In this document: in pieces, positions 4,497 through 54,329 of the stretch
How positions within the stretch are numbered: the first letter of the stretch is position 1
How the letters are laid out: each line of letters opens with the position of its first letter
From: an uncultured Candidatus Saccharibacteria bacterium
Lineage (GTDB): Bacteria > Patescibacteriota > Minisyncoccia > CAIUEV01 > JAHKAQ01
Length of the DNA stretch: 64,000 nucleotides
NCBI GenBank assembly: GCA_964598205.1
Contig: CAZRBB010000001.1
Span: 28,199 to 92,198, forward strand
Direction: 5' to 3'
Made by a program: the position numbers and the translations under genes
Notes under the pieces: model-generated
The model's database searches: none
What the model was told of the DNA's origin: nothing
Seen by the model: the letters and a program-made list of their open reading frames with translations, nothing else

Positions 4497-4691
4497 GTTC
4501 CTTGAATTTAAAAAATAAAAATCCACGAGATTTAGAATTCGTGGAAGAACTAATTTTAATATCAAACGCCAAACATTTACTAACAACATTATACCTTAGC
4601 TAAGAAAAGATTGCGAAAAGAGGGATATTTAGAAAGCGTCCCTGCTTTTTAAAAAGCCTATTACAGCGAGTATGGTTGGAAATAAAGAAAG

Positions 4692-7684: not shown

Positions 7685-7710
7685 TAATAATTTCCCTAAC
7701 TAAACAAAAA

Positions 7711-23002: not shown

Positions 23003-23012
23003 GTTTTAAAAA

Positions 23013-39663: not shown

Positions 39664-39786
39664 TTTATTGCTTTGTTTTAAAAAATTATTCAAACCAGAA
39701 AAAAGAGCATTCAAGCGCCAAGGTAATTCATTTTTATTTTCACCAATTTTGCGTTATAAAAAGAGGATAGAAAATTTATTGCCTTT

Positions 39787-41193
39787 GTGCAAAAAACAGA
39801 AATCAAAACTTTAATCTTTTGGCTTTTCTACTGCCTCTGCTGTTTAATTTTAGGGGCGGTTTTTTCTTTTTCTCTTTCCGCCGGAAAAATAAAAGGGATT
39901 GTTCCCGTTGTTTCTTTTAAAAATTCCCAAACAATTCTTCCCGATGGAGAAATCAAAGTGGAGTTTGATCGCCCAGTCAGAAAAGAAGAAATAGAAAAGA
40001 GCTTTAAAACAACCCCTTCCGTTCCTGGGAACTTGGTTTGGAAGAATGATCTCTTTGGATTTTCCTTTATACCTAAGGAAGTTTTCCAGGAAGATCAAAA
40101 ATACTTAGTGGCCTTTTTTGGAATGAATAAATGGTTCATTCCTTTTGGCGGAGAATGGGAATTTAAAACAGGATCGCTTCCCAAAATAGAAAGAGTCTCT
40201 CCTTTTAAGGGGCAGGGAGTAAAAAATGATGAAAAGATTTTTGTAAGATTTGACCGCCCAGTTCAAAATTACGAAGCGATTTTTAAACTAACACCAGAAA
40301 CTGATCTAGGAATTATTAAAAGTGATGACAACCAGGAATTTGTTTTGGTTCCTAGGCCGGAGCTTAAAAGCGCTACTAAATATCAGCTAGAAGTTTCTTT
40401 GCGCTATAAATCGTCTAAAGAAAATAATAACGAAAAGGTAGTCGGCAATTTAGAATTTTCCACCTTTGATCCCCTGCAACTTACGGGGAGTTTACCGGTT
40501 AATGGATCTAAGAATGTAATCTTTAACCAAAAAATATCCTTATCGTTTAATTGGCCGGTGGATTTGGAAAAATTTAGAGAGTACTTAACAGTTTCTCCGG
40601 AAAGCTTGTTTAAACTGGAACAAAGTGCCGATGGAAAAACAATTTTTATTAAACCAGAAGGATTAAAGCACGAAACCGATTACGAAATAAAAATCAGGAA
40701 AGGATTGGCGACCAAAGAAGGTGGGTATTTAGAAGAAGATGCGGTGGTGGCTTTCCGGGTGGGGATTTTGGGAAGCGTAGTTTCGTTAACCGCCAGAGCT
40801 ACAGAAGATCCAGCGGTTAAAGAGGGGAAGTTCATTGATGTTAATCTTACTCGCCAGTTACTAGATATTTATAGCAGTGGCGTGGTGTTGGGGACTTATA
40901 GAATTTCTTCTGGTAAAAGTGGTATGCGGACACCGACGGGTCGGTTCACCATTTTGACCAAAGAAAGAAGGCACTGGTCTCGTCAATACAAGCTCTGGAT
41001 GCCATATTCCATGCAGTTTACCAGCGCCGGCCACTTTTTACATGAATTGCCAGAATGGCCAAACGGCTACAAAGAGGGCGCTAATCATTTAGGAATTCCT
41101 GTAAGTCACGGTTGTGTCCGTTTGGGTGTGGGTCCAGCAGAAACTGTTTTTAACTTTGGCGATATCGGCACGCCGATAAAGGTTCATTACTAG
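39787..41193 (+). CDS. L,D-transpeptidase (YkuD domain) with N-terminal Ig-like repeats
   Basis: C-terminal catalytic motif SHGCVRL; signal/TM at the N-terminus. Confidence 0.75.
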   Translation: MQKTEIKTLIFWLFYCLCCLILGAVFSFSLSAGKIKGIVPVVSFKNSQTILPDGEIKVEFDRPVRKEEIEKSFKTTPSVPGNLVWKNDLFGFSFIPKEVFQEDQKYLVAFFGMNKWFIPFGGEWEFKTGSLPKIERVSPFKGQGVKNDEKIFVRFDRPVQNYEAIFKLTPETDLGIIKSDDNQEFVLVPRPELKSATKYQLEVSLRYKSSKENNNEKVVGNLEFSTFDPLQLTGSLPVNGSKNVIFNQKISLSFNWPVDLEKFREYLTVSPESLFKLEQSADGKTIFIKPEGLKHETDYEIKIRKGLATKEGGYLEEDAVVAFRVGILGSVVSLTARATEDPAVKEGKFIDVNLTRQLLDIYSSGVVLGTYRISSGKSGMRTPTGRFTILTKERRHWSRQYKLWMPYSMQFTSAGHFLHELPEWPNGYKEGANHLGIPVSHGCVRLGVGPAETVFNFGDIGTPIKVHY

Positions 41194-41324: not shown

Positions 41325-42833
41325 GTGGAAAAAATAAATGTCAACACTTTGTTTCCCTCCTCCCTATTTGCTAAAATTAAAGAGATGAAAAAAAAGCGGT
41401 CCCCAAAAAAAGCAAAATCAAAGTCAAAGCCAAAAGCCAAATCTCCTGCGCCTTCTGTTTTTAAAAAGAACATTGTTTTTTTAATTCTGGCAATCTGCCT
41501 GATCGCTGGTGGCATATTTCTTTTGGCAAAAAACCATCCGTCCTCCCCAAATTTTCCACTTCCTGTTCCCCAAAGATCCAAAGAAGCGATTTTGGAAGAC
41601 GCCAAAAAAGGAATAGAGAATCGTAAGCGCGACTTTACCGTTTCTAAGCTTAGGCCAGGAAAAACTTACGAATTAAAACAAGTGACCCAAAAATTTCCTT
41701 TTGGAACAGCGCTTTCTTTTAATTTATTATTTGCGCCGAAGGTTTTTTCTAAAAGTCACCCTAGCGGCTACCAAGCAATCATGGACTATCCCGGTGGCTA
41801 CCTTAGCGCTAAAAAAAATTACTTAAAAATATTTCAAGAAAATTTCAACGGTACTACCCCTGAAAACGCCTTTAAATGGGAGTTTATGAATTCACAAGAA
41901 AGAACCGACTGGCGCATTACCGATCAGGCACTGGGCTTTGTAAAGAAAGATCCCGTGCTTTTAGAAAATTTTCGCGGTCATTGTGTTTTTTGGAACAGAA
42001 AAGTTCGCCTACCAGATTATTTACAAAACGCTTCCCAAGAAGAAATAAGAGAAGCAGTTTTTTCCCAAAGGCTAGCCATGATCAAGCGCTATCCCCAAAT
42101 CAAAGAGTGGGATCTAATCAATGAACCAATTATTCGCCCAGCTTACCTTAAAGACGGTGTTGATCACATGGAAGTTGTTTTTGATCCCCAAAAAGACCTT
42201 GATTTTTTTGTTTCTCTTTTTATTGAGGCTCGGAAAATCAATCCCCAAGCACGATATTTTGTTAACGAAAACCTACTTTTAAGTGGCAAGAATACGCCAA
42301 AGATTATGCAATTTGTAAAAGCGTTGACCGAAAAAGGCGCCAAGCCAGACGGTATTGGTATAGAGGGGCATTTTTCTTCCGATTACAATCCGTTCACCTT
42401 AGAAACCGCCGAAAAGAATCTAAAAGAACTGGCCTCCTTGGGGCTTCCTCTAAAAATAACGGAATTAGATTTTCCCCGTTCTTCTTTTTTGGGGAGTGAA
42501 GATCCTGAGCAAAAACGCGCCACCTATTTAAAAGAAATGCTGACACTTTTTTACGGTACGCCTCAAATAGAAGGTATTTATTTTTGGGGATTTGCCGATC
42601 CGGTTCACTGGAAAGGCAATGAAGGTGCTGGCTTGTTTGATTCTGAATTAAAAATAAAAATAGCAGGCGAAGAATTTCAAAAACTGACCCAAGAAGAATG
42701 GGTTACCAAGGAAACCAAAACCGCCGAAGATAACGGAATCATCAACTTCCGCGGCTTTCCTGGCCGTTACCAAATTATAGATCAGGCTTCTGGGAGAAAA
42801 GTTAAAGAAGTAGTCTTAGAGGAGGCTCCTTGA
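41325..42833 (+). CDS. Membrane-anchored glycoside hydrolase, GH10-like (clan GH-A)
   Basis: Lys-rich N-region then a TM. Acid/base motif WDLINEP and nucleophile motif ITELD in the (beta/alpha)8 order typical of GH10. The Met at 41386 is an alternative start. Confidence 0.55.
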   Translation: MEKINVNTLFPSSLFAKIKEMKKKRSPKKAKSKSKPKAKSPAPSVFKKNIVFLILAICLIAGGIFLLAKNHPSSPNFPLPVPQRSKEAILEDAKKGIENRKRDFTVSKLRPGKTYELKQVTQKFPFGTALSFNLLFAPKVFSKSHPSGYQAIMDYPGGYLSAKKNYLKIFQENFNGTTPENAFKWEFMNSQERTDWRITDQALGFVKKDPVLLENFRGHCVFWNRKVRLPDYLQNASQEEIREAVFSQRLAMIKRYPQIKEWDLINEPIIRPAYLKDGVDHMEVVFDPQKDLDFFVSLFIEARKINPQARYFVNENLLLSGKNTPKIMQFVKALTEKGAKPDGIGIEGHFSSDYNPFTLETAEKNLKELASLGLPLKITELDFPRSSFLGSEDPEQKRATYLKEMLTLFYGTPQIEGIYFWGFADPVHWKGNEGAGLFDSELKIKIAGEEFQKLTQEEWVTKETKTAEDNGIINFRGFPGRYQIIDQASGRKVKEVVLEEAP

Positions 42834-42921: not shown

Positions 42922-43950
42922 CTATTCCAGCCCCTTTTTAATCAAAAACCTGGCCTTTCTAATTTCTCGTTCCATTCTCTCTTTATCTTTCAATAGAAAG
43001 CGATTGAATTTTTTCCGTGTTTCTTCTGGCAAAATTGCAATGGCCTCTTTTATTTTTAGAGCCAAATCTTGGGAGTCTCTTTTTTGGGAAAAGATGGCGA
43101 TTTTAGAAAAGTAATGCCTTAGGGCGCCGGTATCGGTAGTAACAAAAACTTTTCTTAGGGCCAGTGCTTCTCTAATTGACCAAAGAACCGTTTTATTTCT
43201 TAGGGTTAAGCACAGCGCTACTTTGGAGCGAGCCATTAGTTTTAAAAATTCTATATGCTCCAAGTAGCCAGTAAAAATTAGGTTCGCAGGCAATCCTTCT
43301 TTTTCTTCCGATTCTAAAAGACCAGGATCTCCGGTTATAAAAAAATCCCAGTTAGGATTATTTTTAGCTGTTTCCCTAATAGTAGGGAAGTCATCGTCGT
43401 TCGGAGCAAAGCGGTTAACCACTAAAACGGGAAAAGTTGATTTTTCTATTTTTGCCGCCAGCTTCTTATTTTCTAATGGTTTCCCCAGTGCTCCTTTGTC
43501 CAAATCGGGTGTGGCAAACTGAACTTCTAAGGAAGGGACTTGCCAACGCCGTAGAATTTGTAAGTCAAATTTATTATGAGCAGTTACTATAATTGATTTT
43601 CTAAAAATAAATTTTCCAAAGAAATGAAAGTGTCGCCATTTTTTGCTTCTAAAAAAAACAGAATGATTATCTACTCCGAATTTAGTTTTTGGATAAAAAA
43701 AGGAAAAACAAGAAACAATTAAAATCGGTAAGAGTGGAGGATTTTGAATAAAAACGAATCTGGGCCGTTCGCGGAAAAGCCACTTTATAGTGCGCACGCT
43801 CTGCTCAAAATACCGAACCAAAAAATGAGCCCCAGGATTTTTAGCCTGAGCCAGAACCACTTGCAAACCCAATGCCAAAGCCAAGTTCCGGCTGAGTTGG
43901 TCTTCTCGTGGCCAAATTAAAAAGCATTTTTTATTCTCCAAAATTTTCAC
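42922..43950 (-). CDS. Glycosyltransferase (GT-B fold, family 1/4-like)
   Basis: Rossmann-like halves in GT-B arrangement, in a glycan gene context. Family assignment is tentative. Confidence 0.5.
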   Translation of the reverse strand: MKILENKKCFLIWPREDQLSRNLALALGLQVVLAQAKNPGAHFLVRYFEQSVRTIKWLFRERPRFVFIQNPPLLPILIVSCFSFFYPKTKFGVDNHSVFFRSKKWRHFHFFGKFIFRKSIIVTAHNKFDLQILRRWQVPSLEVQFATPDLDKGALGKPLENKKLAAKIEKSTFPVLVVNRFAPNDDDFPTIRETAKNNPNWDFFITGDPGLLESEEKEGLPANLIFTGYLEHIEFLKLMARSKVALCLTLRNKTVLWSIREALALRKVFVTTDTGALRHYFSKIAIFSQKRDSQDLALKIKEAIAILPEETRKKFNRFLLKDKERMEREIRKARFLIKKGLE

Positions 43951-45181
43951 GGAAGCAATTTTTAAATATTTCTAAGTACTTAGAAGAAGTTTGGGAAGAA
44001 GAATACTGATGCCGAAAGCTAAAGTCAATTTTTTTGCTATTCAAATCTTTCAAGCTCAAATTGGCTAAAGCCACCGGCCAATCCTCATAACTAAGGGCAA
44101 TCCCGGCCTGGTATTTTTTAATGATTTTCGCGGTTTCAAAAACATCACTATTTACAATGATTGGTAAAAAACTTCCCCAGTAATCGGTAATTTTAGAAAA
44201 AAGCGTAATGTTTTTAAATAAAGCTGGCTTTGCTAGGCAGATGCCAATGTCCCCGGCCGAAAGGTAGTAATAGCGCTCACAAGCGGGGAACAGGGAGATG
44301 GCATAATCCCTTTTTTCTTCCAAGCCTCTTTCCTTGGCCCACTCTTTGATTCTATTTTTTAAGCCGGCGGATTCCGGTCGTGCGTTGTCTTCCTTGCCAT
44401 AGATTTGAAAAAAGATAGTCGGGTCTTGTTTTTTTAAGGCACAAATCACATCTAGCATTTTAGGAAAATCGTACCAAACTTCTAGCGCGCCAGCGTAAAT
44501 CACTACTTTTTTCCCCACAAATCCAAGTTTTTTTCGCCAAGCTTCCCGGTCCCAATCTTTATCAGGCAAAAGCGCTTCTTCAAAATAATTAGGAATCGTT
44601 ACGATTTTATTTTTTAAACTTTTATCGCGGTGCAATTCAACTAAGTGTTGCCCCAAGAAAGGAGTCTCTACGCGGGTCAAATAAGATTCTTTGATTCCTT
44701 TTTTTTCTAACCATTTAATTAGTGGTCCGTACAATGTATTTTTTAAGCCACCATAGTAATGGCGCTTAGCCCAATAAGCAGCGAGTGGGGAATAAACAAA
44801 GGGAATTTTTTTAGTTTTCTTTAAAATTAATGCCACCGGAATAAATTTGTAGCTCAGAAACAAAAGAACAGTCGGTGTTCCAAAAGAACAAAGAGGATTT
44901 AGGATTTTTAAGGCTTCTTTGGTAAAATTAACAATAGTGGGAATAGCGGTAAAACGAGAAACAAAAATAGAATGCCATTTAATGCCAGCGGTTCGTAATT
45001 CTTCTTCCGCCTCCGCCCGAAACTTTTCTTGAGCACTAAAACCGCCTCCTCGTGTTTCTATTAAGTGCGTTTCTATTCCCGATCTTTGAGCCGCTTTTAG
45101 GGTAGCGTACACAGTGGATTGAGGCTCTCCGTTAGAAAGAGGCATTTCCACCAAAGCGATTAGGCGTTTTATTTGAGGCAT
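43931..45181 (-). CDS. Glycosyltransferase family 4-like (GT-B)
   Basis: C-terminal half carries a VVIYAGAL...FQIYGK pattern typical of GT4 donor-binding domains. Confidence 0.55.
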   Translation of the reverse strand: MPQIKRLIALVEMPLSNGEPQSTVYATLKAAQRSGIETHLIETRGGGFSAQEKFRAEAEEELRTAGIKWHSIFVSRFTAIPTIVNFTKEALKILNPLCSFGTPTVLLFLSYKFIPVALILKKTKKIPFVYSPLAAYWAKRHYYGGLKNTLYGPLIKWLEKKGIKESYLTRVETPFLGQHLVELHRDKSLKNKIVTIPNYFEEALLPDKDWDREAWRKKLGFVGKKVVIYAGALEVWYDFPKMLDVICALKKQDPTIFFQIYGKEDNARPESAGLKNRIKEWAKERGLEEKRDYAISLFPACERYYYLSAGDIGICLAKPALFKNITLFSKITDYWGSFLPIIVNSDVFETAKIIKKYQAGIALSYEDWPVALANLSLKDLNSKKIDFSFRHQYSSSQTSSKYLEIFKNCFRENFGE

Positions 45182-45273: not shown

Positions 45274-46749
45274 ATGATAAAAGATCGCAACCGAAAAAAA
45301 GCTTACCTTTATTTCTTGATTCTTTTTGTTTTTGGCTTACTTTCTTTGCTTGGGTTTGGTTTGTTAAATTTGAACGAGCGTTTTCTAATTATTACTTTTC
45401 TCTCTTCCGCACTGCTTCTTTTAGCCTTTTTCCGCTTGGACTGGCTTTTATTTTTTGTAATCCTTTCTTTGGTTTTTAATCGTTGGCTACTTACTTACCA
45501 AATTGATTTTGGTTTTTTATCCCAATTTTTTGGGGTAAAAGAACTGTTAGTTAGTCCCTACACTTTAATTTATGGCTTAATAGTCTTTCTTTTTTTGGTG
45601 GAGTTTCTTAGTGCCCCGAGAAAAGTATTCAAGGCTCCACTTGTTTGGTTGATCGTTTTGGCCGTGGTTTTTAACGGACTATCTTTTTGGAAAGCTGAAT
45701 ATAAACTTTCTGGCCTTAACGATTGGCTATATTTTTTGGGATTCTTTGCCGCTTATTTTTTAGGGTTCTTGCGTTTTAATTCTCCTCGTGACTATTTAAA
45801 GCTCTTAATTTTCTTGATTTTAGCTGCGATAGTGCCTTTATTTTTTGCTTTTCGTCAATTAATTTTAGGAGACTTCTTTTACGAAGGCGATTCCGGACTA
45901 CCGCGCTTAATTGGTAGTTTTTTTCATCCCAACACTCTAGGCTCTTTTTTCTTAGTGGCAGTGACTGTTTCTTGGGCATTATTTTTAGCCAGTGTAGAAG
46001 GAGCTAAGGGGAATCATTTTTTTAAATCCAGTAAATTATTTTTTATTGTCTTTCTTTTATTTTTAGTCGGAATGGGATTTACTTTTTCCCGTTCTTCCTG
46101 GATCGGCGCCATCGTTGCCCTCTTGGTTGTTTCTTTTTCCAGACCTTGGTTTAAAAAGTTTTTTCTATTGGGTGCTGTTTTTTTAGCACTTACTATTTTT
46201 ATCCTAACTCCTTTGCGTCAAAGAGTAATCGAAGTTTTTCATCCAAGAATGTTCGACACGCTTCATTCCCGTTTTGAAATTTGGGATTGGGCCTTGTTCG
46301 CCTTCCGCGACCATCCTTGGACTGGTTATGGTTTTGGATCGTTCGAAAAGGTGGTTCAAGAAGTGCGCGGTTACGACTCCGGCAATGCTTATCCGCACAG
46401 TGACACGGTTTTATTTTTAACAGAGAGAGGCATTTTAGGATTTTTAGGCTATCTTTTCTATATGCTGGGTGCAATTTTTTACGCTTTCCGCGGCTATTTG
46501 CGGCCACCATTGGAAAAAAGAAGATTGAGTTTTTTTGGGAAAAGTCAGTTCTGGGATTTTAAAGTTTTAGGATCTATTCCTTTGGCGCTATTTGTGGCAA
46601 TGGTTCTAGTTTCTTTGGTAGAATCACCAGTTCGCGACTTTACTTTTCAATTCTTAAGCTGGATTCTTTTAGGAAGCTTTTTGGGTTTTTCCAGAAAGAA
46701 AAAGAAACGAGCTACCACCGAGGATCCATCAACCTTGCCGGCGGAATAG
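45274..46749 (+). CDS. O-antigen ligase/polymerase-like (Wzy/WaaL family) membrane protein
   Basis: About 12 TM helices and a periplasmic loop with FTFSRSSWIGAIVALLVV, the signature region of O-antigen ligase-like proteins. Confidence 0.7.
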   Translation: MIKDRNRKKAYLYFLILFVFGLLSLLGFGLLNLNERFLIITFLSSALLLLAFFRLDWLLFFVILSLVFNRWLLTYQIDFGFLSQFFGVKELLVSPYTLIYGLIVFLFLVEFLSAPRKVFKAPLVWLIVLAVVFNGLSFWKAEYKLSGLNDWLYFLGFFAAYFLGFLRFNSPRDYLKLLIFLILAAIVPLFFAFRQLILGDFFYEGDSGLPRLIGSFFHPNTLGSFFLVAVTVSWALFLASVEGAKGNHFFKSSKLFFIVFLLFLVGMGFTFSRSSWIGAIVALLVVSFSRPWFKKFFLLGAVFLALTIFILTPLRQRVIEVFHPRMFDTLHSRFEIWDWALFAFRDHPWTGYGFGSFEKVVQEVRGYDSGNAYPHSDTVLFLTERGILGFLGYLFYMLGAIFYAFRGYLRPPLEKRRLSFFGKSQFWDFKVLGSIPLALFVAMVLVSLVESPVRDFTFQFLSWILLGSFLGFSRKKKKRATTEDPSTLPAE

Positions 46750-46803: not shown

Positions 46804-47739
46804 ATGGTTAAAGATTCAAGCCAAAAAGAGGAGAAAAAATTCCAGCTAGGTTGTGATTACGAACGGATTGCCGCGTGGACCATGAGCAAAACTTGCAATT
46901 TTCAATGTGATTATTGTTTTTACAATTCTTCACAGATGGGTCTAGCCAAGAAGGCGGCCACAAAATTTCTAGAAAAAGCAACCTTTCTTAATCCTTATCG
47001 CACCCGAGTGATTACTCCAGAAGCGGCTAAAGATTTTTTTGATCGTACTGCTAAGCGCTGGTATTTAATTCTTTCTGGCGGTGAGCCTTTTATTTATCCT
47101 AAATTTACAGAAATTGCCGCTACTCTGACCGAACGCCATTTAATTACCGTGGCCACCAATTTAAGTCGGCCAGTAGAAGCTTTTATTAAAGCGGTTAATC
47201 CCAAGAATGTGCGCGAACTCTACGCTTCCCTTCACTTGGGCGAACGGCGCAAAATGAGTATTAAACTTTCGGTAGAAGAGTTTTTGGAAAAGGCAATAAA
47301 ACTAAGAGACGCCGGCTTTACGGTTAATCCCGACTTTGTACTTTATCCACCACTAATCAAGGAATATAAAAATATTTTTGCGCAGTTTAAAAAAGAAGGA
47401 TTTTTTATAGAAGCCAAAGTTTTCCGAGGTCTTTGGGATGGTCGTCGTTATCCGGCTGCTTTTACCAAAAAAGAACGCACCGATTTTTTAGCGTTTATTC
47501 CTCATCCAGTAGACCGCGCTTCTGCTTTTAATTCGTTATCTTTTAAGGGGAAAATTTGTTCGGCCGGTATTGATTTTTTCCGGATCACTCCCAATGGAAC
47601 CATTACTCGTTGCACCGATGATTGGGAAAAGATTGGTAATATATTTACTGGGGTTTTTAAGCCGCATGCCGTCTTAAAAAAGTGCCGATCCAAGGAGTGT
47701 GGCTGTACTGTAGCGCCGAAAGAGGGTTGCGTGATTTAG
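46804..47739 (+). CDS. Radical SAM domain protein (small, Cys-rich C-terminus)
   Basis: CNFQCDYC (CxxxCxxC) then ILSGGEPFIYP. The C-terminus carries additional Cys (CTDDW...CRSKECGCT). Paralog of 4692..5690. Confidence 0.7.
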   Translation: MVKDSSQKEEKKFQLGCDYERIAAWTMSKTCNFQCDYCFYNSSQMGLAKKAATKFLEKATFLNPYRTRVITPEAAKDFFDRTAKRWYLILSGGEPFIYPKFTEIAATLTERHLITVATNLSRPVEAFIKAVNPKNVRELYASLHLGERRKMSIKLSVEEFLEKAIKLRDAGFTVNPDFVLYPPLIKEYKNIFAQFKKEGFFIEAKVFRGLWDGRRYPAAFTKKERTDFLAFIPHPVDRASAFNSLSFKGKICSAGIDFFRITPNGTITRCTDDWEKIGNIFTGVFKPHAVLKKCRSKECGCTVAPKEGCVI

Positions 47740-47749
47740 CAGAAAACAA

Positions 47750-47816
47750 AAAACTGCTAAAGAAAAAGAGTTTTTTGTTGTCCTAGAATCAGGACACTAT
47801 TTTCTTTAGCAGTTTT
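47750..47816. terminator. Nested palindromic hairpin, probable bidirectional terminator
   Basis: 17-bp perfect inverted repeat AAAACTGCTAAAGAAAA/TTTTCTTTAGCAGTTTT enclosing an inner GTCCT/AGGAC pair. Lies between two convergent genes. Confidence 0.6.
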
Positions 47817-47883: not shown

Positions 47884-48852
47884 CTACCAGATTACGCTCA
47901 TGTAGCAATTTTCTACCGCACAGGCATACGAGCACCGGCCGGTGGTGAGACTTGTGGTCAGCTCGCGGGCCTTGATCAATGCTTTTCGAAGCAGCCCATC
48001 AAGCCGTTCCTTTGTCCCGGTCCAGTTGCAAACCCCAACCTGTACCTCTTTGCCAGGGGCCCAATACTTAACCGTTACCAAATCTTGAGCACCTGCATCC
48101 TGCCCATAAATCACGCGGTATTCCTCAAGCCGCTCTTCGCCGATCTTGGTCCAGGCGCTTCCGATAGACGAAGTCTTGGGGCAGTCATCGCCAACGCAAC
48201 CGCCGGTCCTTGGCGCGTAACCAGTGCCCCCACTTCCGCCCGCATGACCGCCAGACCGTACGCCCTTGCCGCCAGATCCTCCGCTTCTTCTGCCTTTAAC
48301 ACCTTCGTCGCAGAGATTGGATTGCTTGGCAATCAGGAGATCCGTTTCGATTTTTTTTGCCAATATCAGGTCGGCCTCAATTTTTTTTGCGGTGATCAGC
48401 TCTGCCTCGATTTTTTTGGTATGGACTGATTCCGCTTCGAGCCGATTCACTTTCAGGCTGGGCTTCCGATTGGCATAGTACGCCTTCCGCAATTCCCGAC
48501 CCTTCTTTATCGCTATTTCCATGTCGTCCCGTGTTGTCGGGTGCCGCAACACCATCCCCGCCGGTAGGTTGTCCACCTGGGAAATGTTGAGCCCAGTATG
48601 CGCGGCAACGACCCACGCATTCCATCCTACTTTGTCGGAGTAACCCATCAGGGTTGCCCCGCTCGGCAGAGTCCCCTCGGCGATTACGCCCAGGGCGTCT
48701 ACAATGTTTTGCGTGTCCCCAGCAATCTTGTCCAGTTTTTCTTCCATGCGATCCAATTGATCGCTGTTCCCCAAGGCCAGAACTTCGGCCGTGGGTGCCC
48801 CTGTCAACGCCAACAAAAAAATCCCCAATACTACCAATGCCAGTTTTTTCAT
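47884..48852 (-). CDS. Secreted LysM-domain protein with 11-aa tandem repeats and a Gly-rich/Cys-rich C-terminal region; GC-rich island gene
   Basis: Signal peptide MKKLALVVLGIFLLALTGAPTA, a LysM-like block (GYSDKVGWNAWVVAAHTGLNISQVDNLPAGMVLRHP), repeats AKKIEA(E/D)LI(T/L), a GGSGG linker and a Cys-rich end. Local GC is visibly higher than the flanks and the third codon positions are GC-rich. Confidence 0.6.
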   Translation of the reverse strand: MKKLALVVLGIFLLALTGAPTAEVLALGNSDQLDRMEEKLDKIAGDTQNIVDALGVIAEGTLPSGATLMGYSDKVGWNAWVVAAHTGLNISQVDNLPAGMVLRHPTTRDDMEIAIKKGRELRKAYYANRKPSLKVNRLEAESVHTKKIEAELITAKKIEADLILAKKIETDLLIAKQSNLCDEGVKGRRSGGSGGKGVRSGGHAGGSGGTGYAPRTGGCVGDDCPKTSSIGSAWTKIGEERLEEYRVIYGQDAGAQDLVTVKYWAPGKEVQVGVCNWTGTKERLDGLLRKALIKARELTTSLTTGRCSYACAVENCYMSVIW

Positions 48853-49126: not shown

Positions 49127-49924
49127 TTAACCAAAGTTTTGCCAAAAGCGCGCTCGTAGTTTGGCTTCACTTTCTGCTAATTCTTCTAGATTAAAAAATG
49201 GCAAAGAAGGAGGTGTCTCTATTTTACTAGTTTTTTTAGAAAAATCGTATCCATAATTATTAGGAAATATTTCTGCTTTCTTTTCTTTTTGATACATCCA
49301 AGAATCCACTTTTTCTCCTTTTAAAAAGACCAGCGCAATTCCCAAGAACAAACCCAAAACAGCGGCCCCCAGCGTATTTAGAGGCACATTAGGACTAACT
49401 GGCTTTACAAAAAAAGTCGGTCCGCCAATGTTCTTTAAATACATATTGGGATTACCATGGAGTTTTTCTCCATTATTTATTAGCTCGTTGTTAATTGCCT
49501 TAATCAATTCCTGCCCTTCTTTTTGGTTTTTAGTTAGAACAGCAACCTTTAAGATGCCGGTATCGCTAACCTTACTAGCCTGTACTGTCTTGGCCCAATT
49601 AGAAGACCTTGCCTCAGGATCGGTTCCAAAATCATCTTTTACTGTTTTTGCTCCTTTAATTACCCGATCCATAAAATTAGGAGTGTAAATAATCCGTTCC
49701 AAAATTTCGGCCGCATACTCTGAGCTTTTAGCTGCTCGGTAGGCATCTATGTCTAAATTCTTTTGAAGCACCAAAAGTTGCAAGTCATTTTTGTAAGTCG
49801 GTGGATAAAGCGCACTGAGAATAAAAACCAGCGCCGCACAAAAAGTGGAGCAAAGAAAGATAAAAAACTTTTTATTCATTAATAGATTCCAATCGTCTTT
49901 TTTGGAAATCTGTTTTTCTTCCAT
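49127..49924 (-). CDS. Wzz-like polysaccharide chain-length determinant family protein
   Basis: N-terminal TM, periplasmic domain and a second C-proximal TM (AAVLGLFLGIALVFL); the topology and size fit short Wzz/PCP proteins. Confidence 0.5.
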   Translation of the reverse strand: MEEKQISKKDDWNLLMNKKFFIFLCSTFCAALVFILSALYPPTYKNDLQLLVLQKNLDIDAYRAAKSSEYAAEILERIIYTPNFMDRVIKGAKTVKDDFGTDPEARSSNWAKTVQASKVSDTGILKVAVLTKNQKEGQELIKAINNELINNGEKLHGNPNMYLKNIGGPTFFVKPVSPNVPLNTLGAAVLGLFLGIALVFLKGEKVDSWMYQKEKKAEIFPNNYGYDFSKKTSKIETPPSLPFFNLEELAESEAKLRARFWQNFG

Positions 49925-50231: not shown

Positions 50232-51707
50232 ATGCTTAAGTATTTGGTTTTCACCAGTTCCAGATCCTATTTTATTTTTGTTTCCAGTGTTATGGCAATT
50301 TCTGTTAAAAAATATCACCAGCTTTTAAATCTCTCTAAATTTTTAGTAGAAGTTTTGGCTGTTTTTTCCTTAATCCTGCTTATTTTCCAAAGATTAGGAG
50401 ATGATTCACTCTTTAAGCCACCATTCCCTAGCTCCTTTAATAGTTTTCTTTCTTTGGCCATTTTCTTTACTTTGATTCAAGCGCTTATCTTTATCTTTAT
50501 TGGTTTTTACAGAAGGGAACTTTCTTTCCTTAATTTTGAAGATTTAAAGAAAGCAATTCAGTCTCTTCTTTGGGGGAGTGTTCTTTTGCTTTTCTTTTTA
50601 CTTTATCGGGGAGAAGGGGAAAGCGCTTTCCACCTAGCTGCTCTTTATTTTGGCTTAGCCTTTGCGTTGATTAGCTCGGAACGGAGCTTTTTCTACGAAC
50701 TTAACAGACGAAATTATAAGAAAGGACTTTGGGTTAAAAAGGTAGCCATTTATGATGCTTGTCCTACCGGCCGACTTCTTTTAAAAAAACTTTTTGCTTC
50801 GCCTCAGTTAGGTTATTTACCAGTAGGCTTTATAGACAACAGAAGGAAGAAAGGCGTTCTAGTAAAAACGAACTCCGAAGAGACTAAAGCAGCGGTGCCT
50901 GTTCTAGGCAATATGGCTAACTTTGGGAGAATTATTAGGAAAAATCAAATAGAAGAATTGTTTATTGCCACGCCGGCCCTAAAAGGAGGAGATATTCAAC
51001 GCCTTGCTTTAAGCTGTAAAAGAGCCGGTATTGATTACCGTTTTGTTCCAAATCTCTTAAAAGAACCATTGCATCGGGCTACCTTACAATTCTTTGGGGA
51101 AATTCCTTTTATTAAGGCGGAAGAATTAAGAATCAATCTTTTAACCCTCTTTTTAAAAAGAGTTTTTGATTTAGCTTTTTCTGTTTTAGCGCTATTCTTT
51201 CTTTCTCCTGTTTTTCTTTTAATTTCTTACCTGATTAAAAAAGATTCACCTGGGCCGGTATTCTTTGGGCAAAAACGAGTTGGCAAAGACGGCCGGTTAT
51301 TTACAATGTACAAATTCCGCACCATGAAGGCTGGGGCCAAACATTATGAATATTCTCCTACTAATCATAAAGACCAAAGGATAACTCCTCTGGGTCGTTT
51401 TTTAAGACGAACTAGCTTAGACGAGTTGCCTCAATTTTTTAATTCCTTAAAAGGAGAAATGAGCGTTGTGGGTCCACGACCGGAAATGGAATTTATTGTT
51501 AAAAAATATACTGTTTACCAAAGAGAGCGGTTGCTTATAAAGCCGGGAATCACCGGCGTTTGGCAGGTAACAGCTGATCGTAAAAAACAAATTCACGAAA
51601 ACATGGATTACGATATTTATTACATTAAAAATGCCTCTTTGGTTTTAGACTTCTTGATTATTTTTCGGACTTTTTGGTTTGCAGTGCGGGGAATCGGCGG
51701 AATTTAA
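50232..51707 (+). CDS. Polyprenyl-phosphate hexose-1-phosphate transferase (WbaP/bacterial sugar transferase family), priming glycosyltransferase
   Basis: N-terminal TM helices plus a C-terminal sugar-transferase domain (KRVFDLAFSVLAL...FTMYKFRTM...LDELPQFFNSLKGEMSVVGPRP). Confidence 0.8.
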   Translation: MLKYLVFTSSRSYFIFVSSVMAISVKKYHQLLNLSKFLVEVLAVFSLILLIFQRLGDDSLFKPPFPSSFNSFLSLAIFFTLIQALIFIFIGFYRRELSFLNFEDLKKAIQSLLWGSVLLLFFLLYRGEGESAFHLAALYFGLAFALISSERSFFYELNRRNYKKGLWVKKVAIYDACPTGRLLLKKLFASPQLGYLPVGFIDNRRKKGVLVKTNSEETKAAVPVLGNMANFGRIIRKNQIEELFIATPALKGGDIQRLALSCKRAGIDYRFVPNLLKEPLHRATLQFFGEIPFIKAEELRINLLTLFLKRVFDLAFSVLALFFLSPVFLLISYLIKKDSPGPVFFGQKRVGKDGRLFTMYKFRTMKAGAKHYEYSPTNHKDQRITPLGRFLRRTSLDELPQFFNSLKGEMSVVGPRPEMEFIVKKYTVYQRERLLIKPGITGVWQVTADRKKQIHENMDYDIYYIKNASLVLDFLIIFRTFWFAVRGIGGI

Positions 51708-51716
51708 TTTAAGAAT

Positions 51717-52964
51717 ATGCCACCATTAAAACAATCAGCCATTAAAAAAATGTCAAAGAGAGTTTTATTTTTAATAGAAAATCTTTCTTTCCTTCAGGAT
51801 CGGCGAGTTGCCCAAGAAGCTCTAGCCGTTCAGTCTCTGGGCTGGCAAGTTTTTGTGGTTGCTCCTGGAAATAAAGATCAAAAGAAGGAAGAAAATATCA
51901 ACGGTATTTCTGTTTTTCGCTATCCCGCCAAAATTTTTCCTAGTGGTTTTTGGGGCTATTTCCAGGAATATACTTATGCTCTTTATCAAACATTTTTCTT
52001 GGCGTTAAAAATTTATTTTCGTCCTGGCGGTTTTTCGGTAATCCACGCCGCTAATCCCCCCGATCTGTTTTTCTTAATCGGTGCCTTTTTTAAAATCTTC
52101 GGTGTTCGCTTTATTTATGACCAGCACGATTTAGCTCCAGAAATGTTTTTAGCTAAGTTCAATACTTCTCGTACTCATTTGCTTTACTGGGCGACCCGTT
52201 TCGCAGAACGGCTTTCTTATCTTTTAGCCACTACTCACATTGCTACCTGTCAGGTAGGCTTGGATTTTTTTCTAAAAAGTCGCAACTTAAAGAATAAAAA
52301 AAGCCAAATAGTTAGAACTGCCCCCGATCTTTCTCTTTTAAATTCTTTTGGCGCTAACCCCAAACTTCTTAATCGCTTAACTGCCATTAAGAAAGATTTC
52401 CCTTATTTGGGAGTTTACTTAGGAGTAATGGGACATCAAGACGGATTAAGCAAGCTTCTTCGGAGCATTGAAATTTTTGTTAAAAAATCTAAAAGAAAAG
52501 ACATTGGTTTTCTTCTTTTGGGATCGGGCGACGCCCTAAACGATTTAAGAATTACTGTTGGAAAAATGGGACTAGAGAATCGAGTTTTTTTCCTTGGCTG
52601 GATGGAACCCAAAGAAACTGCTGCATGCTTGGAGGTAGCTGATTTTGGCTTAATGCCTGAACCAAAAAATGATTACACCGATTATTCGCTTCATAATAAA
52701 GTATTAGAATACTTAGCTTTTGGATTACCTTTTGTTTCTTACGACTTAAAAGAAGTTCAAAATAATGGCCACGCTGCCGCGCTTTATGCCAAGAATAATA
52801 ACGAAGAAGAGTATGCCGAGCTAATTAATCAAATGTTAAATAATCTAGATTCCCAAAAAAAGGAAGGCCAAAAAAGAAAAGCGGAAATTATGACTGACCA
52901 GTCTTTGAGTTGGGACAATTCAATAAAAACGCTAAAAGAAATTTATTTAAAGTTGGATAAATAA
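51717..52964 (+). CDS. Glycosyltransferase family 4
   Basis: GT-B fold, N-domain LFLIENLSF...VVAPG, C-domain with the EX7E-like region. Confidence 0.7.
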   Translation: MPPLKQSAIKKMSKRVLFLIENLSFLQDRRVAQEALAVQSLGWQVFVVAPGNKDQKKEENINGISVFRYPAKIFPSGFWGYFQEYTYALYQTFFLALKIYFRPGGFSVIHAANPPDLFFLIGAFFKIFGVRFIYDQHDLAPEMFLAKFNTSRTHLLYWATRFAERLSYLLATTHIATCQVGLDFFLKSRNLKNKKSQIVRTAPDLSLLNSFGANPKLLNRLTAIKKDFPYLGVYLGVMGHQDGLSKLLRSIEIFVKKSKRKDIGFLLLGSGDALNDLRITVGKMGLENRVFFLGWMEPKETAACLEVADFGLMPEPKNDYTDYSLHNKVLEYLAFGLPFVSYDLKEVQNNGHAAALYAKNNNEEEYAELINQMLNNLDSQKKEGQKRKAEIMTDQSLSWDNSIKTLKEIYLKLDK

Positions 52965-53011
52965 TTTTGTTGTGCTATAAAGCTTGGTTATTTTTCTTCT
53001 TAATTTAAAAC

Positions 53012-54244
53012 ATGAAAGATCCCAAAAAAATTCTTTTTATCACCAGCGCCTATTATGCTCCTTCTTATCGACGACTTTGGAAAAAAGCTGTTTCCTTAAA
53101 AAACGATGGCTATAAGGTGGCAGTAATTTGTCCCGCCGGAAAAAAGGGATTAAAAGAAACCAAGGAGCAGGGGATAAAAATTTATGGATTTAATAAAAAA
53201 ACAAAAAGAAATAGCGTTCTTGGTATTTTTTTAGGGGAGATTAGAGATTTGCTCTCTATGACTTCTTTGGTTCTTAGTGCCTATTCCAAAAGAGAGTTTG
53301 CAACTATTCACTTGGTTAATCCTTCGGATGTGGCAGTTTTTGCAGTGCTCTGGTTTAAGCTCTTAGGGTACCGTTTTGTTTACGAATCAAATGGTTCATT
53401 TTCTTCTCAAATTTATCGGGAAGAAAAACTTTCCCAATCAAGCGGTAAGTGGTTTCTGAATCTATTTTTAAAAAGTTCGCAAAAACTAGCTTTGTTTTTT
53501 TCTGACTGGGTGATTGTTCCTGACTGGCAAGAAAAGAAAAGACTCGTTGCCCTAGGGAAAAACAAAAGGCGCATCATCACTATCGAACCATTACCCGATC
53601 TAAAAGAATTTTACGACTTGTTGCCCCATCATCGTTACAAAATGGGTTTTTCTAAGGTAGCAATTTATGCTGGCGGTCTTAAGTTTTCTTCTGGTATTCT
53701 AAAACTACTTGTCGCCGTTGATTTTATTGTGAATCGTCTTTTAAGGAAAGATATTTTGTTTATTTTAGCTGGAGAAGGAAAAGATGAAGAACGATTAAAA
53801 AAGATTGTTCAAGAAAGGGGATTGGAAGGAAATGTTTTTTTCACTGGTTGGCTAAAACAAAAAAAATTATTAAATTACTTAGCCGCAGCAGATTTAGGAA
53901 TTATTCCCGAAGAAAATAATCTGGAAGGAAAGTTTCGGGATTCTGCTTTTGAATATTTAGCCGTAGGTAAGCCAATTGTTGCTTTTGATTTCCCTGGTGG
54001 AGAAGAAAAAATCGGTAAAGCTGGATCTTTTGTAAAAGATGGCAAAGAAATTTCCCTAGCTCGGGAAATTATTCGCTTAATAGATAACGAAGAACGAATC
54101 AAGGCCATGGGCTCGGTTGGGAGGCTTAAAGTTTCCCGTAATTTTAATTGGCTAAAATCAGAAATAGAATTGCTAGCTTTTTATGACCGTCTTTTTCCAA
54201 ACGACTCCTTCTTTAAAATTAGCAAAAAAGCACTCAAAATATAA
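53012..54244 (+). CDS. Glycosyltransferase family 4
   Basis: GT-B fold; ILFITSAYY...VAVICP N-domain and C-terminal donor-binding domain. Confidence 0.7.
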   Translation: MKDPKKILFITSAYYAPSYRRLWKKAVSLKNDGYKVAVICPAGKKGLKETKEQGIKIYGFNKKTKRNSVLGIFLGEIRDLLSMTSLVLSAYSKREFATIHLVNPSDVAVFAVLWFKLLGYRFVYESNGSFSSQIYREEKLSQSSGKWFLNLFLKSSQKLALFFSDWVIVPDWQEKKRLVALGKNKRRIITIEPLPDLKEFYDLLPHHRYKMGFSKVAIYAGGLKFSSGILKLLVAVDFIVNRLLRKDILFILAGEGKDEERLKKIVQERGLEGNVFFTGWLKQKKLLNYLAAADLGIIPEENNLEGKFRDSAFEYLAVGKPIVAFDFPGGEEKIGKAGSFVKDGKEISLAREIIRLIDNEERIKAMGSVGRLKVSRNFNWLKSEIELLAFYDRLFPNDSFFKISKKALKI

Positions 54245-54329
54245 GCTAAATACTACAAGTAGTTATTTTAAGTTTCCTTTTCCATGTCATGGTGTTAAAA
54301 TAAAAAATATAAAAATAAAAAATATTCTA

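Follow-up and report, generated by a model that had tools for sequence, protein, structure and literature searches.

A twitch-type radical SAM enzyme encoded beside a Wzy_C gene in a patescibacterial surface-polysaccharide cluster

To our knowledge, sugar-acting radical SAM (rSAM) enzymes come almost only from antibiotic pathways. BtrN and SpeY, twitch rSAM dehydrogenases of aminoglycosides and aminocyclitols, and BlsE, a twitch-like cytosylglucuronate decarboxylase, are antibiotic-pathway proteins of 250-330 aa that act on carbohydrate-type small molecules, and in each of them an rSAM core is joined to one C-terminal auxiliary domain, with no RiPP recognition element (RRE). A twitch domain also follows the rSAM core in SkfB, the sporulation killing factor sactisynthase of Bacillus subtilis (PDB 6EFN), which is encoded in a bacteriocin operon together with its precursor peptide and has an N-terminal RRE. 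In anSME (PDB 4K36-4K39) there is no RRE, and the Cys-rich C-terminal auxiliary domain is a full seven-Cys SPASM domain with two clusters. In the literature we found no characterised rSAM enzyme from the synthesis of a Wzy-dependent capsule, O-antigen or exopolysaccharide, and the rSAM genes CjjRM3420_1449 and _1441 of the Campylobacter jejuni HS:19 capsule locus are uncharacterised (PMC8743553).

We describe here an rSAM protein, rSAM-A, encoded within a glycan cluster of the window, by which we mean the whole 64,000-nucleotide stretch of DNA that was analysed (Table 1). The genes around it encode a Wzy-dependent pathway to a surface polysaccharide, and we consider rSAM-A to be, with a probability of roughly one half, a cytoplasmic twitch-type tailoring enzyme of that pathway. 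A sequence-only reading had paired it with a second protein, rSAM-B, and the two open reading frames are indeed present, although that reading did not mention that the second lies on the minus strand. Its description of proteins of about 310-330 aa with CxxxCxxC and SGGEP motifs is accurate for both (311 and 332 aa), as is its observation of extra cysteines near the C-termini, which are conserved in both families.

Table 1. Features of the window, with positions counted from its first nucleotide.
Feature	Position	Strand	Description and evidence
313-aa protein	3648..4589	-	Directly downstream of rSAM-B; weak C-terminal DUF62 (SAM hydroxide adenosyltransferase) match
rSAM-B	4692..5690	-	332-aa radical SAM enzyme of a separate small family; PF04055, 38.2 bits
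Third rSAM	23013..24326	-	MiaB-like
GT1-family glycosyltransferase	42922..43950	-	342 aa; conserved block; PF00534 and PF13692
GT4-like glycosyltransferase	43931..45181	-	Divergent, 416 aa; conserved block; weak PF13439, E 1e-3
Wzy_C-domain membrane protein	45274..46749	+	Polymerase- or ligase-like; PF04932, E 5.6e-19, 68.8 bits vs cutoff 31.7
rSAM-A	46804..47739	+	311-aa radical SAM enzyme with C-terminal twitch-type domain; ORF, PF04055, AF2, Foldseek
SAM-binding [4Fe-4S] cluster ligand codons, C31-x3-C35-x2-C38	46894..46917	+	Invariant in the 66-sequence alignment A2
'GGE' SAM-binding motif codons, S91-G-G-E-P95	47074..47088	+	G92, G93 and E94 invariant; S91 and P95 nearly so
Twitch-type auxiliary-cluster region, C252-x12-G265-x4-C270 ... 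C294-x4-C299-x-C301	47557..47706	+	Conserved Cys; AF2 model
Terminator-like hairpin	47779..47796	+	40 bp past the rSAM-A stop codon; weak evidence
322-aa protein	47884..48852	-	Likely signal peptide, KKIEA(E/D)L repeats, Gly-rich stretch; between rSAM-A and the Wzz-like gene
Wzz/CpsC-like chain-length determinant	49127..49924	-	265 aa; PF02706, 23.1 bits vs cutoff 25.5
Priming polyprenyl-phosphate glycosylphosphotransferase (WbaP/WcaJ type)	50232..51707	+	PF02397, E 1e-66; TIGR03025, 380 bits vs 295.55
Two GT4 glycosyltransferases	51717..52964 and 53012..54244	+	Profile matches

The rSAM core and auxiliary domain of rSAM-A

Both proteins exceed the PF04055 gathering score of 29.5 bits (50.9 bits for rSAM-A and 38.2 bits for rSAM-B), so their motifs are not chance occurrences. 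The AF2 model of rSAM-A (pLDDT 92.9) has an alternating strand/helix pattern, and together with Foldseek it predicts the partial (beta/alpha)6 barrel of the superfamily with the GGE motif in place, within ILSGGEP at residues 89-95. Foldseek matches for the models of both proteins are exclusively rSAM enzymes at a probability of 1.00, and superfamily membership predicts that rSAM-A would cleave SAM reductively to a 5'-deoxyadenosyl radical. Its top matches are SPASM/twitch rSAMs that act either on sugars (BlsE, AbmM, SpeY, DesII, and BtrN) or on peptides, and the peptide- and protein-modifying neighbours (CteB, anSME, SkfB, SuiB, and PqqE) are as numerous as the sugar-modifying ones; all are distant, with TM values of about 0.5 and identities of 11-20%.

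No curated NCBIfam family fits rSAM-A; even the top match, STM4011, scores 52.9 bits where the cutoff is 200. The sequence-only reading had allowed that the protein might fall into a housekeeping subfamily such as QueE or the anaerobic RNR activase, and we have dropped this assignment because the scores are far under the curated cutoffs for NrdG2 (18 against 131), MoaA (23 against 284), anSME (21 against 349), and viperin (36 against 180), and QueE is absent from the NCBIfam matches at E <= 1. A defence-system role was likewise set aside, as the PADLOC pVip matches of both rSAM proteins are partial and confined to the N-terminal core. Searches of NCBIfam profiles, PDB sequences and the literature on rSAM enzymes in surface polysaccharides found no characterised homologue of rSAM-A. 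Its close homologues form about 22 clusters at 47-56% identity, and those with taxon labels are all Patescibacteria, mostly Moraniibacteriota. Alignment and model agree that this close clade has a helical insert of its own, 25-30 residues long, after the cluster loop (residues ~40-72), and rSAM-A has no predicted membrane segment.

Twitch domains have been described with the motif CX9-15GX4C, followed in SkfB by the spacing CX4CXC, together with the caution that sequence similarity cannot predict function within the subfamily (PMC6231123). In rSAM-A, C252-x12-G265-x4-C270 fits the first motif and C294-x4-C299-x-C301 has the spacing of SkfB, with a beta-hairpin at residues 258-270 of the model (strands 258-261 and 266-270). 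C252, G265, C270, and C294 are invariant in the family alignment, and conservation is 90% or more at C299 and C301; the five cysteines appear compatible with one fully ligated auxiliary cluster and a spare Cys. SPASM and twitch clusters had both been considered for this protein, and it is the twitch-type domain that it has: the full seven-Cys SPASM motif (CX9-15GX4C-gap-CX2CX5CX3C-gap-C, with two clusters) is absent from rSAM-A, which lacks CX2CX5CX3C and has no match to the SPASM model PF13186.

The peptide-recognition machinery seen in SkfB is absent. The model shows no N-terminal RRE and neither Pfam nor NCBIfam reveals an additional domain; residues 1-15 are disordered, the first core strand begins at about residue 21 with the cluster motif following from residue 31, and there is thus no room for an RRE. 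There is also no conserved small ORF within 350 bp downstream of the rSAM gene in 14 related loci, and the gaps upstream of it are as short as 7-13 bp, so we have abandoned the idea of an adjacent precursor peptide, although a substrate might be encoded at another site.

The glycan cluster and the Wzy_C-rSAM pairing

rSAM-A had been placed between an O-antigen ligase-like gene and a Wzz-like gene. This is correct on the upstream side, where the Wzy_C gene ends 54 bp away on the same strand, but on the downstream side the ORF of the 322-aa protein precedes the Wzz-like gene. For the Wzy_C protein, polymerase, ligase and O-oligosaccharyltransferase roles all fit and cannot be told apart from its sequence. 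The putative Wzz-like protein also matches TIGR01006 below the cutoff (E 4e-9, 36 bits against 296) and has orthologues in nine related loci (orthologue cluster 4), among which that of L012 has an unmarked precomputed Wzz match and that of L010 a weak one. The two glycosyltransferase genes upstream of the Wzy_C gene recur in eight (GT1, orthologue cluster 6) and seven (GT4-like, orthologue cluster 7) related non-redundant loci, and both appear again in loci found from the Wzy_C gene. Neither a Wzx flippase (among the ORFs of 37.6-58.8 kb and the other scanned ORFs of the window) nor nucleotide-sugar pathway genes (among the scanned ORFs of the window cluster) were found, and the cluster has no sulfatase-family gene. 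Promoter and terminator sites fit a Wzy_C-rSAM bicistron, yet this is weak evidence, since shuffling the sequence yields such sites just as often.

The 322-aa protein has no Pfam or NCBIfam match. When all of the fetched loci were searched by tblastn with its C-terminal 97 residues, the sole matches were in the three contigs whose rSAM-A is identical. We have rejected it as a conserved partner on the latter result; it is strain-specific and probably not functionally tied to rSAM-A.

The pairing of the Wzy_C and rSAM genes is conserved in both directions. Each of the 11 non-redundant loci to which the rSAM led has a Wzy_C gene, with glycosyltransferases, and in the reverse test the rSAM is directly downstream in 11 of 11 metagenome loci found independently with a Wzy_C alignment. 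The seed for this reverse scan was a four-sequence alignment, the six-sequence version being too divergent. The Wzy_C gene is immediately upstream on the same strand in L001, L008, L010, and L012, with gaps of 54, 159, 13, and 7 bp respectively. The glycan linkage suggested by the sequence-only reading extends well beyond local synteny for rSAM-A, although it does not hold for rSAM-B. That reading would have been refuted by a clean housekeeping assignment or by a lack of conserved linkage to glycan genes, and for rSAM-A it withstands both.

The closest outgroups of the rSAM-A clade, in a neighbour-joining tree without support values, also lie in glycan clusters, in other phyla and in archaea. 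The rSAM is accompanied by Wzy_C, GT4, and GT9 genes in L024, by GT4 genes and one GT2 in L023, by GT4 and a Stf0 sulfotransferase in L062, by GT4 and GT2 in L028, and by Wzx, polysaccharide pyruvyl transferase, and GT2 genes in L050, and the context in Desulfovibrionaceae includes GT28, GT4, and polysaccharide deacetylase genes. A homologue with 31% identity is present in the cultured Halodesulfovibrio aestuarii DSM 17919, whose genome is complete, at 6995..8170 of locus L030 from NZ_CP192219.1, and is followed by glycosyltransferases. Deeper branches of the family are found in non-glycan settings, as tandem rSAM arrays and multi-rSAM operons.

Candidate roles of rSAM-A and its relation to rSAM-B

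Because rSAM-A and its close relatives stand constantly behind a polymerase-like gene of a surface-polysaccharide cluster, the enzyme probably modifies that sugar coat, and we infer that its substrate is a sugar or glycan. The type of reaction is a guess, and so are the epimerisation, deoxygenation and C-methylation that the sequence-only reading put forward. The N-terminal [4Fe-4S] cluster (C31/C35/C38) would cleave SAM, and the resulting 5'-deoxyadenosyl radical would take a hydrogen from a carbon of a sugar carried by a nucleotide-sugar or by an undecaprenyl-PP-linked repeat-unit intermediate, prior to flipping and Wzy_C polymerisation. Four of C252, C270, C294, C299, and C301 would ligate the auxiliary cluster, which could take the second electron to give a keto-sugar, as in BtrN and SpeY, or else could position the substrate, and the fifth conserved Cys might serve as hydrogen donor for an epimerisation.

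We think it unlikely, although the evidence is divided, that rSAM-A is instead a protein or peptide maturase, forming a thioether or cross-link as SkfB does or acting like anSME, and that its target is either a small secreted Cys-containing protein encoded nearby or another enzyme from the cluster. The cysteine motif of its twitch domain is most like that of SkfB, searches of PDB sequences with the family profile gave nearly full-length alignments to SkfB and anSME, and the top fold matches include CteB, anSME, and SkfB. In addition, the stretch between the rSAM and Wzz genes of related loci encodes small proteins that vary from locus to locus and have signal peptides and conserved Cys motifs. 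However, these small proteins are encoded on the opposite strand and belong to several unrelated families, none of them universal, and the 322-aa protein of the window itself has no detected homologue in the related loci. rSAM-A has neither an RRE nor an adjacent conserved precursor-like ORF, the cluster has no sulfatase-family gene, and the rSAMs of the sister clades have no neighbours other than glycosyltransferases and enzymes of glycan tailoring.

A role in modifying a lipid appears improbable. The target would be the polymer's membrane anchor or its polyprenyl carrier, with an isoprenoid or acyl chain undergoing, for instance, C-C or C-H chemistry. The tight pairing with an integral-membrane Wzy_C protein would suit such a role, the clade-specific helical insert might touch the membrane or the carrier, and lipid-acting rSAMs do exist, with Tes/GDGT-MAS and HpnH giving weak NCBIfam matches. 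These matches are nevertheless restricted to the N-terminal core, no membrane segment is predicted, and the relatives adjoin pyruvyl- and sulfo-transferases, which are sugar-tailoring enzymes.

It is similarly doubtful that rSAM-A serves cofactor or general metabolism unrelated to the glycan, with the Wzy_C adjacency being a gene order inherited within a narrow lineage. The close homologues all come from one lineage (Patescibacteria/Moraniibacteriota), so that common ancestry could explain part of the adjacency, and the window has the outer flanks YkuD, UvrD, S15, and PNPase in common with two of the loci (L004 and L005). However, the pair is kept where the outer flanks are wholly different (protease/PMT in L008, NosD-like in L010, ClpB in L012), independent outgroups from other phyla and archaea are likewise in glycan clusters, the housekeeping models are unmatched, and a family as rare as this one is ill-suited to a core role.

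The remaining proposal, that rSAM-A and rSAM-B are a duplicated pair with one function and one copy recruited to the glycan locus, is very improbable: the likeness in length, CxxxCxxC, SGGEP, and C-terminal Cys is superficial, the hhalign homology probability of 97.9% applies to the core (columns 6-175 of the family profiles, 169 columns at 15% identity) with the C-terminal domains unaligned, BLASTP aligns only 92 N-terminal residues (27% identity, 24% gaps, E 2e-4), the invariant Cys patterns, best family matches and genomic contexts of the relatives all differ, and each protein is missing from the homologue list of the other. The C-terminal patterns are C-x17-C-x23-C-x4-C-x-C in rSAM-A and C-x48-C-x2-C-x6-C in rSAM-B, and the genes are 42 kb apart. 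We note that the MiaB-like protein is a third rSAM in the window, and several rSAM genes per 64 kb are thus no evidence of duplication. The description of the two as paralogous, duplicated and of the same architecture does not survive these comparisons; recent paralogy is refuted, and to judge from their sequences they share core homology at the level of the superfamily only and are not useful paralogues.

The role of rSAM-B is different from that of rSAM-A. It has C21-x3-C25-x2-C28 and LISGGEP at residues 62-68, and its relatives form twenty representative clusters at E<1e-30; C21, C25, C28, C250, C299, C302, and C309 are invariant in the family. Within its GGE motif, G65 is invariant in both alignments, and G66 and E67 are each invariant in one and at least 90% conserved in the other. 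The AF2 model (pLDDT 87.1) has SuiB, SkfB, and viperins as fold neighbours, and the twitch motif CX9-15GX4C is absent from rSAM-B, which has only C250 upstream, 48 residues ahead of CX2CX6C. Its scores are also far from the curated cutoffs of QueE (12/260), NrdG2 (21/131), MoaA (27/284), and viperin (28/180). We found no glycan linkage: some of its relatives belong to multi-rSAM/AsnB/methyltransferase clusters, and others are fusions with PRTase and beta-propeller domains. The 313-aa protein encoded next to it matches PF20257 under the cutoff (E 1.3e-3) and has no PDB or NCBIfam match, and since it shows no similarity to those parts of P0101, a fused relative, that lie outside the rSAM, we have discarded this relative as fusion evidence for a link between rSAM-B and DUF62. 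Keeping the two rSAMs apart prevents rSAM-B from inheriting an annotation that derives from the glycan locus.

Significance and comparison with known systems

The glycan linkage of rSAM-A is a moderately interesting lead. The cell envelopes of Patescibacteria, which are ultra-small bacteria, are hardly characterised, and if the family does tailor the repeat unit, then radical chemistry joins the reactions that diversify bacterial surface glycans, and a new sugar structure in Patescibacteria is indicated. The H. aestuarii homologue, with its cultured host and the glycosyltransferases next to the gene, makes the question open to experiment. More tentatively, rSAM-A and its sister clades could be the first rSAM tailoring enzymes of a Wzy-dependent cell-surface polysaccharide, with a SkfB-like twitch domain and no RRE, converting a nucleotide-sugar or lipid-linked repeat unit to a keto-sugar by C-H oxidation, to an epimer at an unactivated carbon, or to a product with a new C-C or C-S bond. 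Such a modification would be new to bacterial surface glycans, and the genes might have spread as a mobile cassette among Patescibacteria, Desulfovibrionaceae, Omnitrophota, and DPANN archaea.

By family, the nearest curated relative is STM4011 (NF038073), which scores best both for rSAM-A and for every one of the 66 aligned relatives and matches nearly the whole protein (rSAM-A residues 29-304, model positions 10-256 of 278). None of the 66 has an E-value better than 1e-19, and since the scores are far under the cutoff, the rSAM-A family consists of relatives and not members. STM4011 itself has one incidental mention in the literature.

SkfB resembles rSAM-A in the order of its domains and in having one Cys on either side of a beta-hairpin and then CX4CXC. 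Nearly the whole of the rSAM-A family profile (query positions 12-275) aligns to SkfB, which ranks seventh in Foldseek, although the identity is only ~14%, and the RRE, the precursor peptide and the bacteriocin operon of SkfB stand against the glycan cluster of rSAM-A. The anSME structures occupy Foldseek ranks 3-10 and have the best rmsd among the top matches (5.5-6.3 A), and like rSAM-A they have an rSAM core with a Cys-rich C-terminal auxiliary domain and no RRE; however, rSAM-A has five conserved Cys without CX2CX5CX3C, falls far below the anSME model TIGR03942, and has no sulfatase gene nearby. The rSAM genes of the C. jejuni HS:19 locus are similar in lying within a surface-polysaccharide cluster, a likeness of location.

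BlsE, SpeY, and BtrN (Foldseek ranks 2, 17, and 25) share with rSAM-A its size, the single C-terminal auxiliary domain, and the lack of an RRE. They have 11-15% identity to it, their profile matches cover the N-terminal core only, and they come from antibiotic pathways whereas rSAM-A comes from a Wzy-dependent polysaccharide cluster. The hairpin-spanning C-x17-C of rSAM-A presumably matches the spacing in BtrN, although the second Cys half of BtrN, which we take to be CX2C, differs from the CX4CXC of rSAM-A.

Pairing of rSAM-A with Wzy_C in polysaccharide clusters

The radical SAM (rSAM) protein described here, rSAM-A, is invariably paired with Wzy_C, a polymerase- or ligase-like membrane protein domain (PF04932), in a conserved polysaccharide cluster. 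The window's two genes are separated by 54 bp, with a promoter-like site before Wzy_C and a terminator-like hairpin after rSAM-A, such sites being no commoner here than in shuffled sequence. Neither a Wzx flippase nor a nucleotide-sugar pathway gene was found among the cluster ORFs scanned. The same locus is present on a 187-kb JGI metagenome contig. By its composition (GC about 0.38) and by the homologues recovered, the window belongs to the Patescibacteria, close to Candidatus Moraniibacteriota.

Features of the window, in order of position
Feature	Position	Strand	Remark
Apparent two-gene unit, rSAM-B and 313-aa protein	3648-5690	-	
rSAM-B	4692..5690	-	332 aa
HIT-family gene	6122-6616	+	divergent, 431 bp upstream of rSAM-B
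MiaB-like gene and MiaA (IPP transferase)	22055-24326	-	ordinary tRNA-modification pair
MiaB-like methylthiotransferase (UPF0004 + Radical_SAM)	23013..24326	-	third rSAM; adjoins MiaA
UvrD helicase	37615..39714	-	
L,D-transpeptidase	39787..41193	+	
GH10 (xylanase-family glycoside hydrolase)	41325..42833	+	
GT1-family transferase	42922..43950	-	
Divergent GT4-like transferase	43931..45181	-	
Wzy_C protein	45274..46749	+	
rSAM-A	46804..47739	+	311 aa
Protein with likely signal peptide, no family assignment	47884..48852	-	322 aa; three KKIEA(E/D)L-type repeats, Gly-rich stretch
Wzz/CpsC-like protein	49127..49924	-	
Priming glycosylphosphotransferase	50232..51707	+	passes TIGR03025
Two GT4 transferases	51717..54244	+	
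SpoIID-like protein	54183..55700	+	

The linkage is conserved in both search directions, which bears out the association with glycan genes proposed in the sequence-only reading. Seeded from rSAM-A, all 11 non-redundant loci of the close clade (homologues at 47-56% identity) have Wzy_C in the flanking sequence, along with genes for glycosyltransferases and a priming transferase and one that is Wzz-like. At four fetched loci (L001, L008, L010 and L012) Wzy_C is immediately upstream on the same strand, with gaps of 54, 159, 13 and 7 bp, and the outer flanks are wholly different (protease/PMT, NosD-like, ClpB). The reverse test, a metagenome scan that used a Wzy_C alignment as seed, found 11 close loci, and rSAM is directly downstream in every one; eight are complete, and the other three run off the contig, where tblastn still shows the start of the rSAM gene. 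Two distant Wzy_C matches lack the rSAM. The close homologues form about 22 clusters at 90% identity, and those with taxon labels are all Patescibacteria, mostly Moraniibacteriota; beyond them identity falls to 36% or less.

We also note that the segment encoding the 322-aa protein is locally GC-rich (0.44, against about 0.38 for the window). The protein has no Pfam or NCBIfam match, its C-terminal part matches by tblastn only contigs with identical rSAM-A, and in a variant assembly (L002) a different ORF of 163 aa is called at this position. GH10 and the SpoIID-like gene flank the window's cluster, and do so in none of the gene-listed related loci (L004, L005, L008, L010 and L012).

Outside the close clade, the nearest relatives in a neighbour-joining tree of 94 family members, which carries no support values and is indicative only, come from unrelated organisms and lie within glycan clusters. 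The Patescibacteria clade lies beside L023 (GT4, rSAM, GT4, GT4, GT2), L024 (two GT2, GT4, Wzy_C, GT4, rSAM, GT9, where stop codons overlap start codons), the archaeal locus L062 (Nanobdellati; GT4, rSAM, Stf0 sulfotransferase) and a Desulfovibrionaceae clade (rSAM, GT28-like, two GT4, histidine phosphatase, GT28-like, polysaccharide deacetylase). Further examples are L028 (GT4, rSAM, GT2) and L050 (Wzx, rSAM, polysaccharide pyruvyl transferase, three GT2, two GT4), and in the outgroup clusters the rSAM holds the slot usual for tailoring enzymes. In Halodesulfovibrio aestuarii DSM 17919 (NZ_CP192219.1; L030 6995-14694), one of the Desulfovibrionaceae, a 31%-identical member heads the apparent operon, and this cultured organism with a complete genome offers a tractable system for testing family function.

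Deeper branches differ in context and include tandem arrays of five to seven paralogues in Pacearchaeota, Elusimicrobia, Planctomycetes and Omnitrophota, in which small rSAM genes lie head to tail (L014 7060-12676; L076 3169-7834; L077 3159-8637; L067 2567-12444; L086 1483-9124). Some array members are fusions of several domains, about 970 aa long, and no obvious partner genes of the arrays were identified. Other deep-branch members belong to operons with several rSAM genes. In Micromonospora and another actinomycete (L040 6812-9767; L048, L075) the rSAM is followed by an archaeal-type SAM synthetase (PF01941) and a methyltransferase, a set that would constitute a self-contained SAM-supply module.

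Domain architecture and family placement

rSAM-A is an rSAM protein with a twitch-type domain (an auxiliary Fe-S cluster domain) and without a RiPP recognition element (RRE); the N-terminus has no space for one. The AF2 model, in which residues 1-15 form a disordered tail and the core begins with a strand from residue 21, has high confidence (pLDDT 92.9, pTM 0.89). Residues C31, N32, C35, Y37, C38, G92-G93-E94, T118-N119, S142, H144, C252, G255, G265, C270, G278 and C294 are invariant in 66 homologues, and C299 and C301 are conserved in at least 90%. C252-x12-G265-x4-C270 matches CX9-15GX4C, the first half of the SPASM/twitch motif, with a beta-hairpin (258-261/266-270) between the two cysteines. 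In place of the CX2CX5CX3C of SPASM, the fuller seven-Cys counterpart, the second half reads C-x4-C-x-C, and rSAM-A shares this latter spacing with the twitch domain described for SkfB (PMC6231123). A helical insert, 25-30 residues long and following the cluster loop (approximately residues 40-72), is present in the close clade and lacking in more distant relatives.

Foldseek comparison with the PDB returns only SPASM/twitch-class and related rSAM proteins (CteB, BlsE, anSME, SkfB, MoaA, SuiB, PqqE, AbmM, SpeY, DesII and BtrN) at probability 1.00, TM about 0.5 and 11-20% identity. A family-profile search found no close relative among PDB sequences, and full-length or nearly full-length profile alignments are to SkfB, chain 8vpo_A and anSME. 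STM4011 is the best NCBIfam match for all 66 aligned proteins, none of which approaches its 200-bit cutoff (rSAM-A scores 52.9 bits; the best E-value is 1e-19), so that the family is an uncurated one related to STM4011, itself uncharacterised. Models for QueE, NrdG, MoaA, anSME and viperin all score far under cutoff against rSAM-A. A defence role was set aside, the PADLOC pVip matches being partial and limited to the core.

Relationship of rSAM-A to rSAM-B

The sequence-only reading treated rSAM-A and rSAM-B, the second such protein, as duplicated paralogues. Its motif description is accurate, since both carry the CxxxCxxC cluster (C31-x3-C35-x2-C38 and C21-x3-C25-x2-C28, respectively) and SGGEP, the SAM-binding motif (residues 91-95 and 64-68), and both exceed the Pfam Radical_SAM gathering score of 29.5 bits (50.9 and 38.2). 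However, they are not duplicates of one another. The BLASTP alignment is confined to 92 N-terminal residues (27% identity, 24% gaps, E 2e-4). When the family profiles, built from 66 and 22 sequences, are compared, the probability is 97.9% and the identity 15%, within the rSAM core alone (columns 6-175), leaving the C-terminal domains unaligned. The C-terminal cysteines are C252-x17-C270-x23-C294-x4-C299-x-C301 in rSAM-A, whereas the invariant ones of rSAM-B are C250-x48-C299-x2-C302-x6-C309. The best curated matches are STM4011 for rSAM-A and NirJ1, TrsS and HxsC for rSAM-B, all far under cutoffs, and neither protein is in the other's homologue list. We have dropped the two-paralogue framing on these grounds; three rSAM genes in 64 kb are ordinary and therefore no sign of duplication.

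A word-indexed search with rSAM-B recovered only a fragment of itself, and an exhaustive HMMER search gave 321 representative proteins at E <= 0.001, 20 of them at E <= 1e-30 and mostly 29-45% identical. Several relatives are long fusions of rSAM, PRTase and a PQQ-like beta-propeller, some with a second rSAM, and the clusters that hold more distant members (21-27% identity) contain three or four rSAMs along with methyltransferases and an AsnB-like amidotransferase. By fold, rSAM-B is nearest to SuiB, SkfB and the viperins. The 313-aa protein that follows on the same strand has a weak C-terminal match to SAM_HAT_C (DUF62, SAM hydroxide adenosyltransferase; E 1.3e-3, under cutoff) and a 'DRFGN' motif. 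Nothing linking rSAM-B to glycans was found, and a role directed at nucleosides or nucleotides is no more than a guess.

Plausible substrates of rSAM-A

We put the probability that rSAM-A acts on a glycan or sugar at roughly 0.5. Because rSAM chemistry requires a cytoplasmic reductant and Wzy_C works outside the membrane, the target would be a sugar intermediate in the cytoplasm, whether a nucleotide-sugar or a repeat unit linked to Und-PP. A fully ligated auxiliary cluster, as in BtrN and SpeY, might support two-electron oxidation to a keto-sugar, and the spare conserved cysteine would also permit epimerisation; both are guesses, and any particular reaction would be much less probable than the glycan or sugar assignment. 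An explicit caution has been given that function is not readable from sequence similarity in this subfamily (PMC6231123).

The main rival, that rSAM-A is a protein or peptide maturase, draws on the SkfB-like motif and on a variable set of small secreted proteins containing Cys, which related loci encode between rSAM and Wzz, but we consider it unlikely given that rSAM-A lacks an RRE, a conserved precursor-like ORF is absent, the small proteins are not universal, and the neighbours in sister clades are glycosyltransferases only. These small signal-peptide proteins have conserved Cys-containing C-terminal motifs (L008 10581-10934, minus strand; homologues in L010, L104, L105 and L110) and might either be glycosylated or serve as substrates of the rSAM. 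Modification of the lipid carrier, or an unrelated function retained by synteny, is in either case less probable still.

The literature yielded neither a characterised relative of rSAM-A nor a report of its family in polysaccharide synthesis; a Campylobacter capsule locus is on record as containing uncharacterised rSAM genes (PMC8743553). The chemistry is putative, and rSAM-A offers a solid lead that can be tested, a homologue being available in a cultured organism. The twitch-domain rSAM class to which it belongs is well known; what is undescribed is the rSAM-A family and its tight coupling to Wzy_C.
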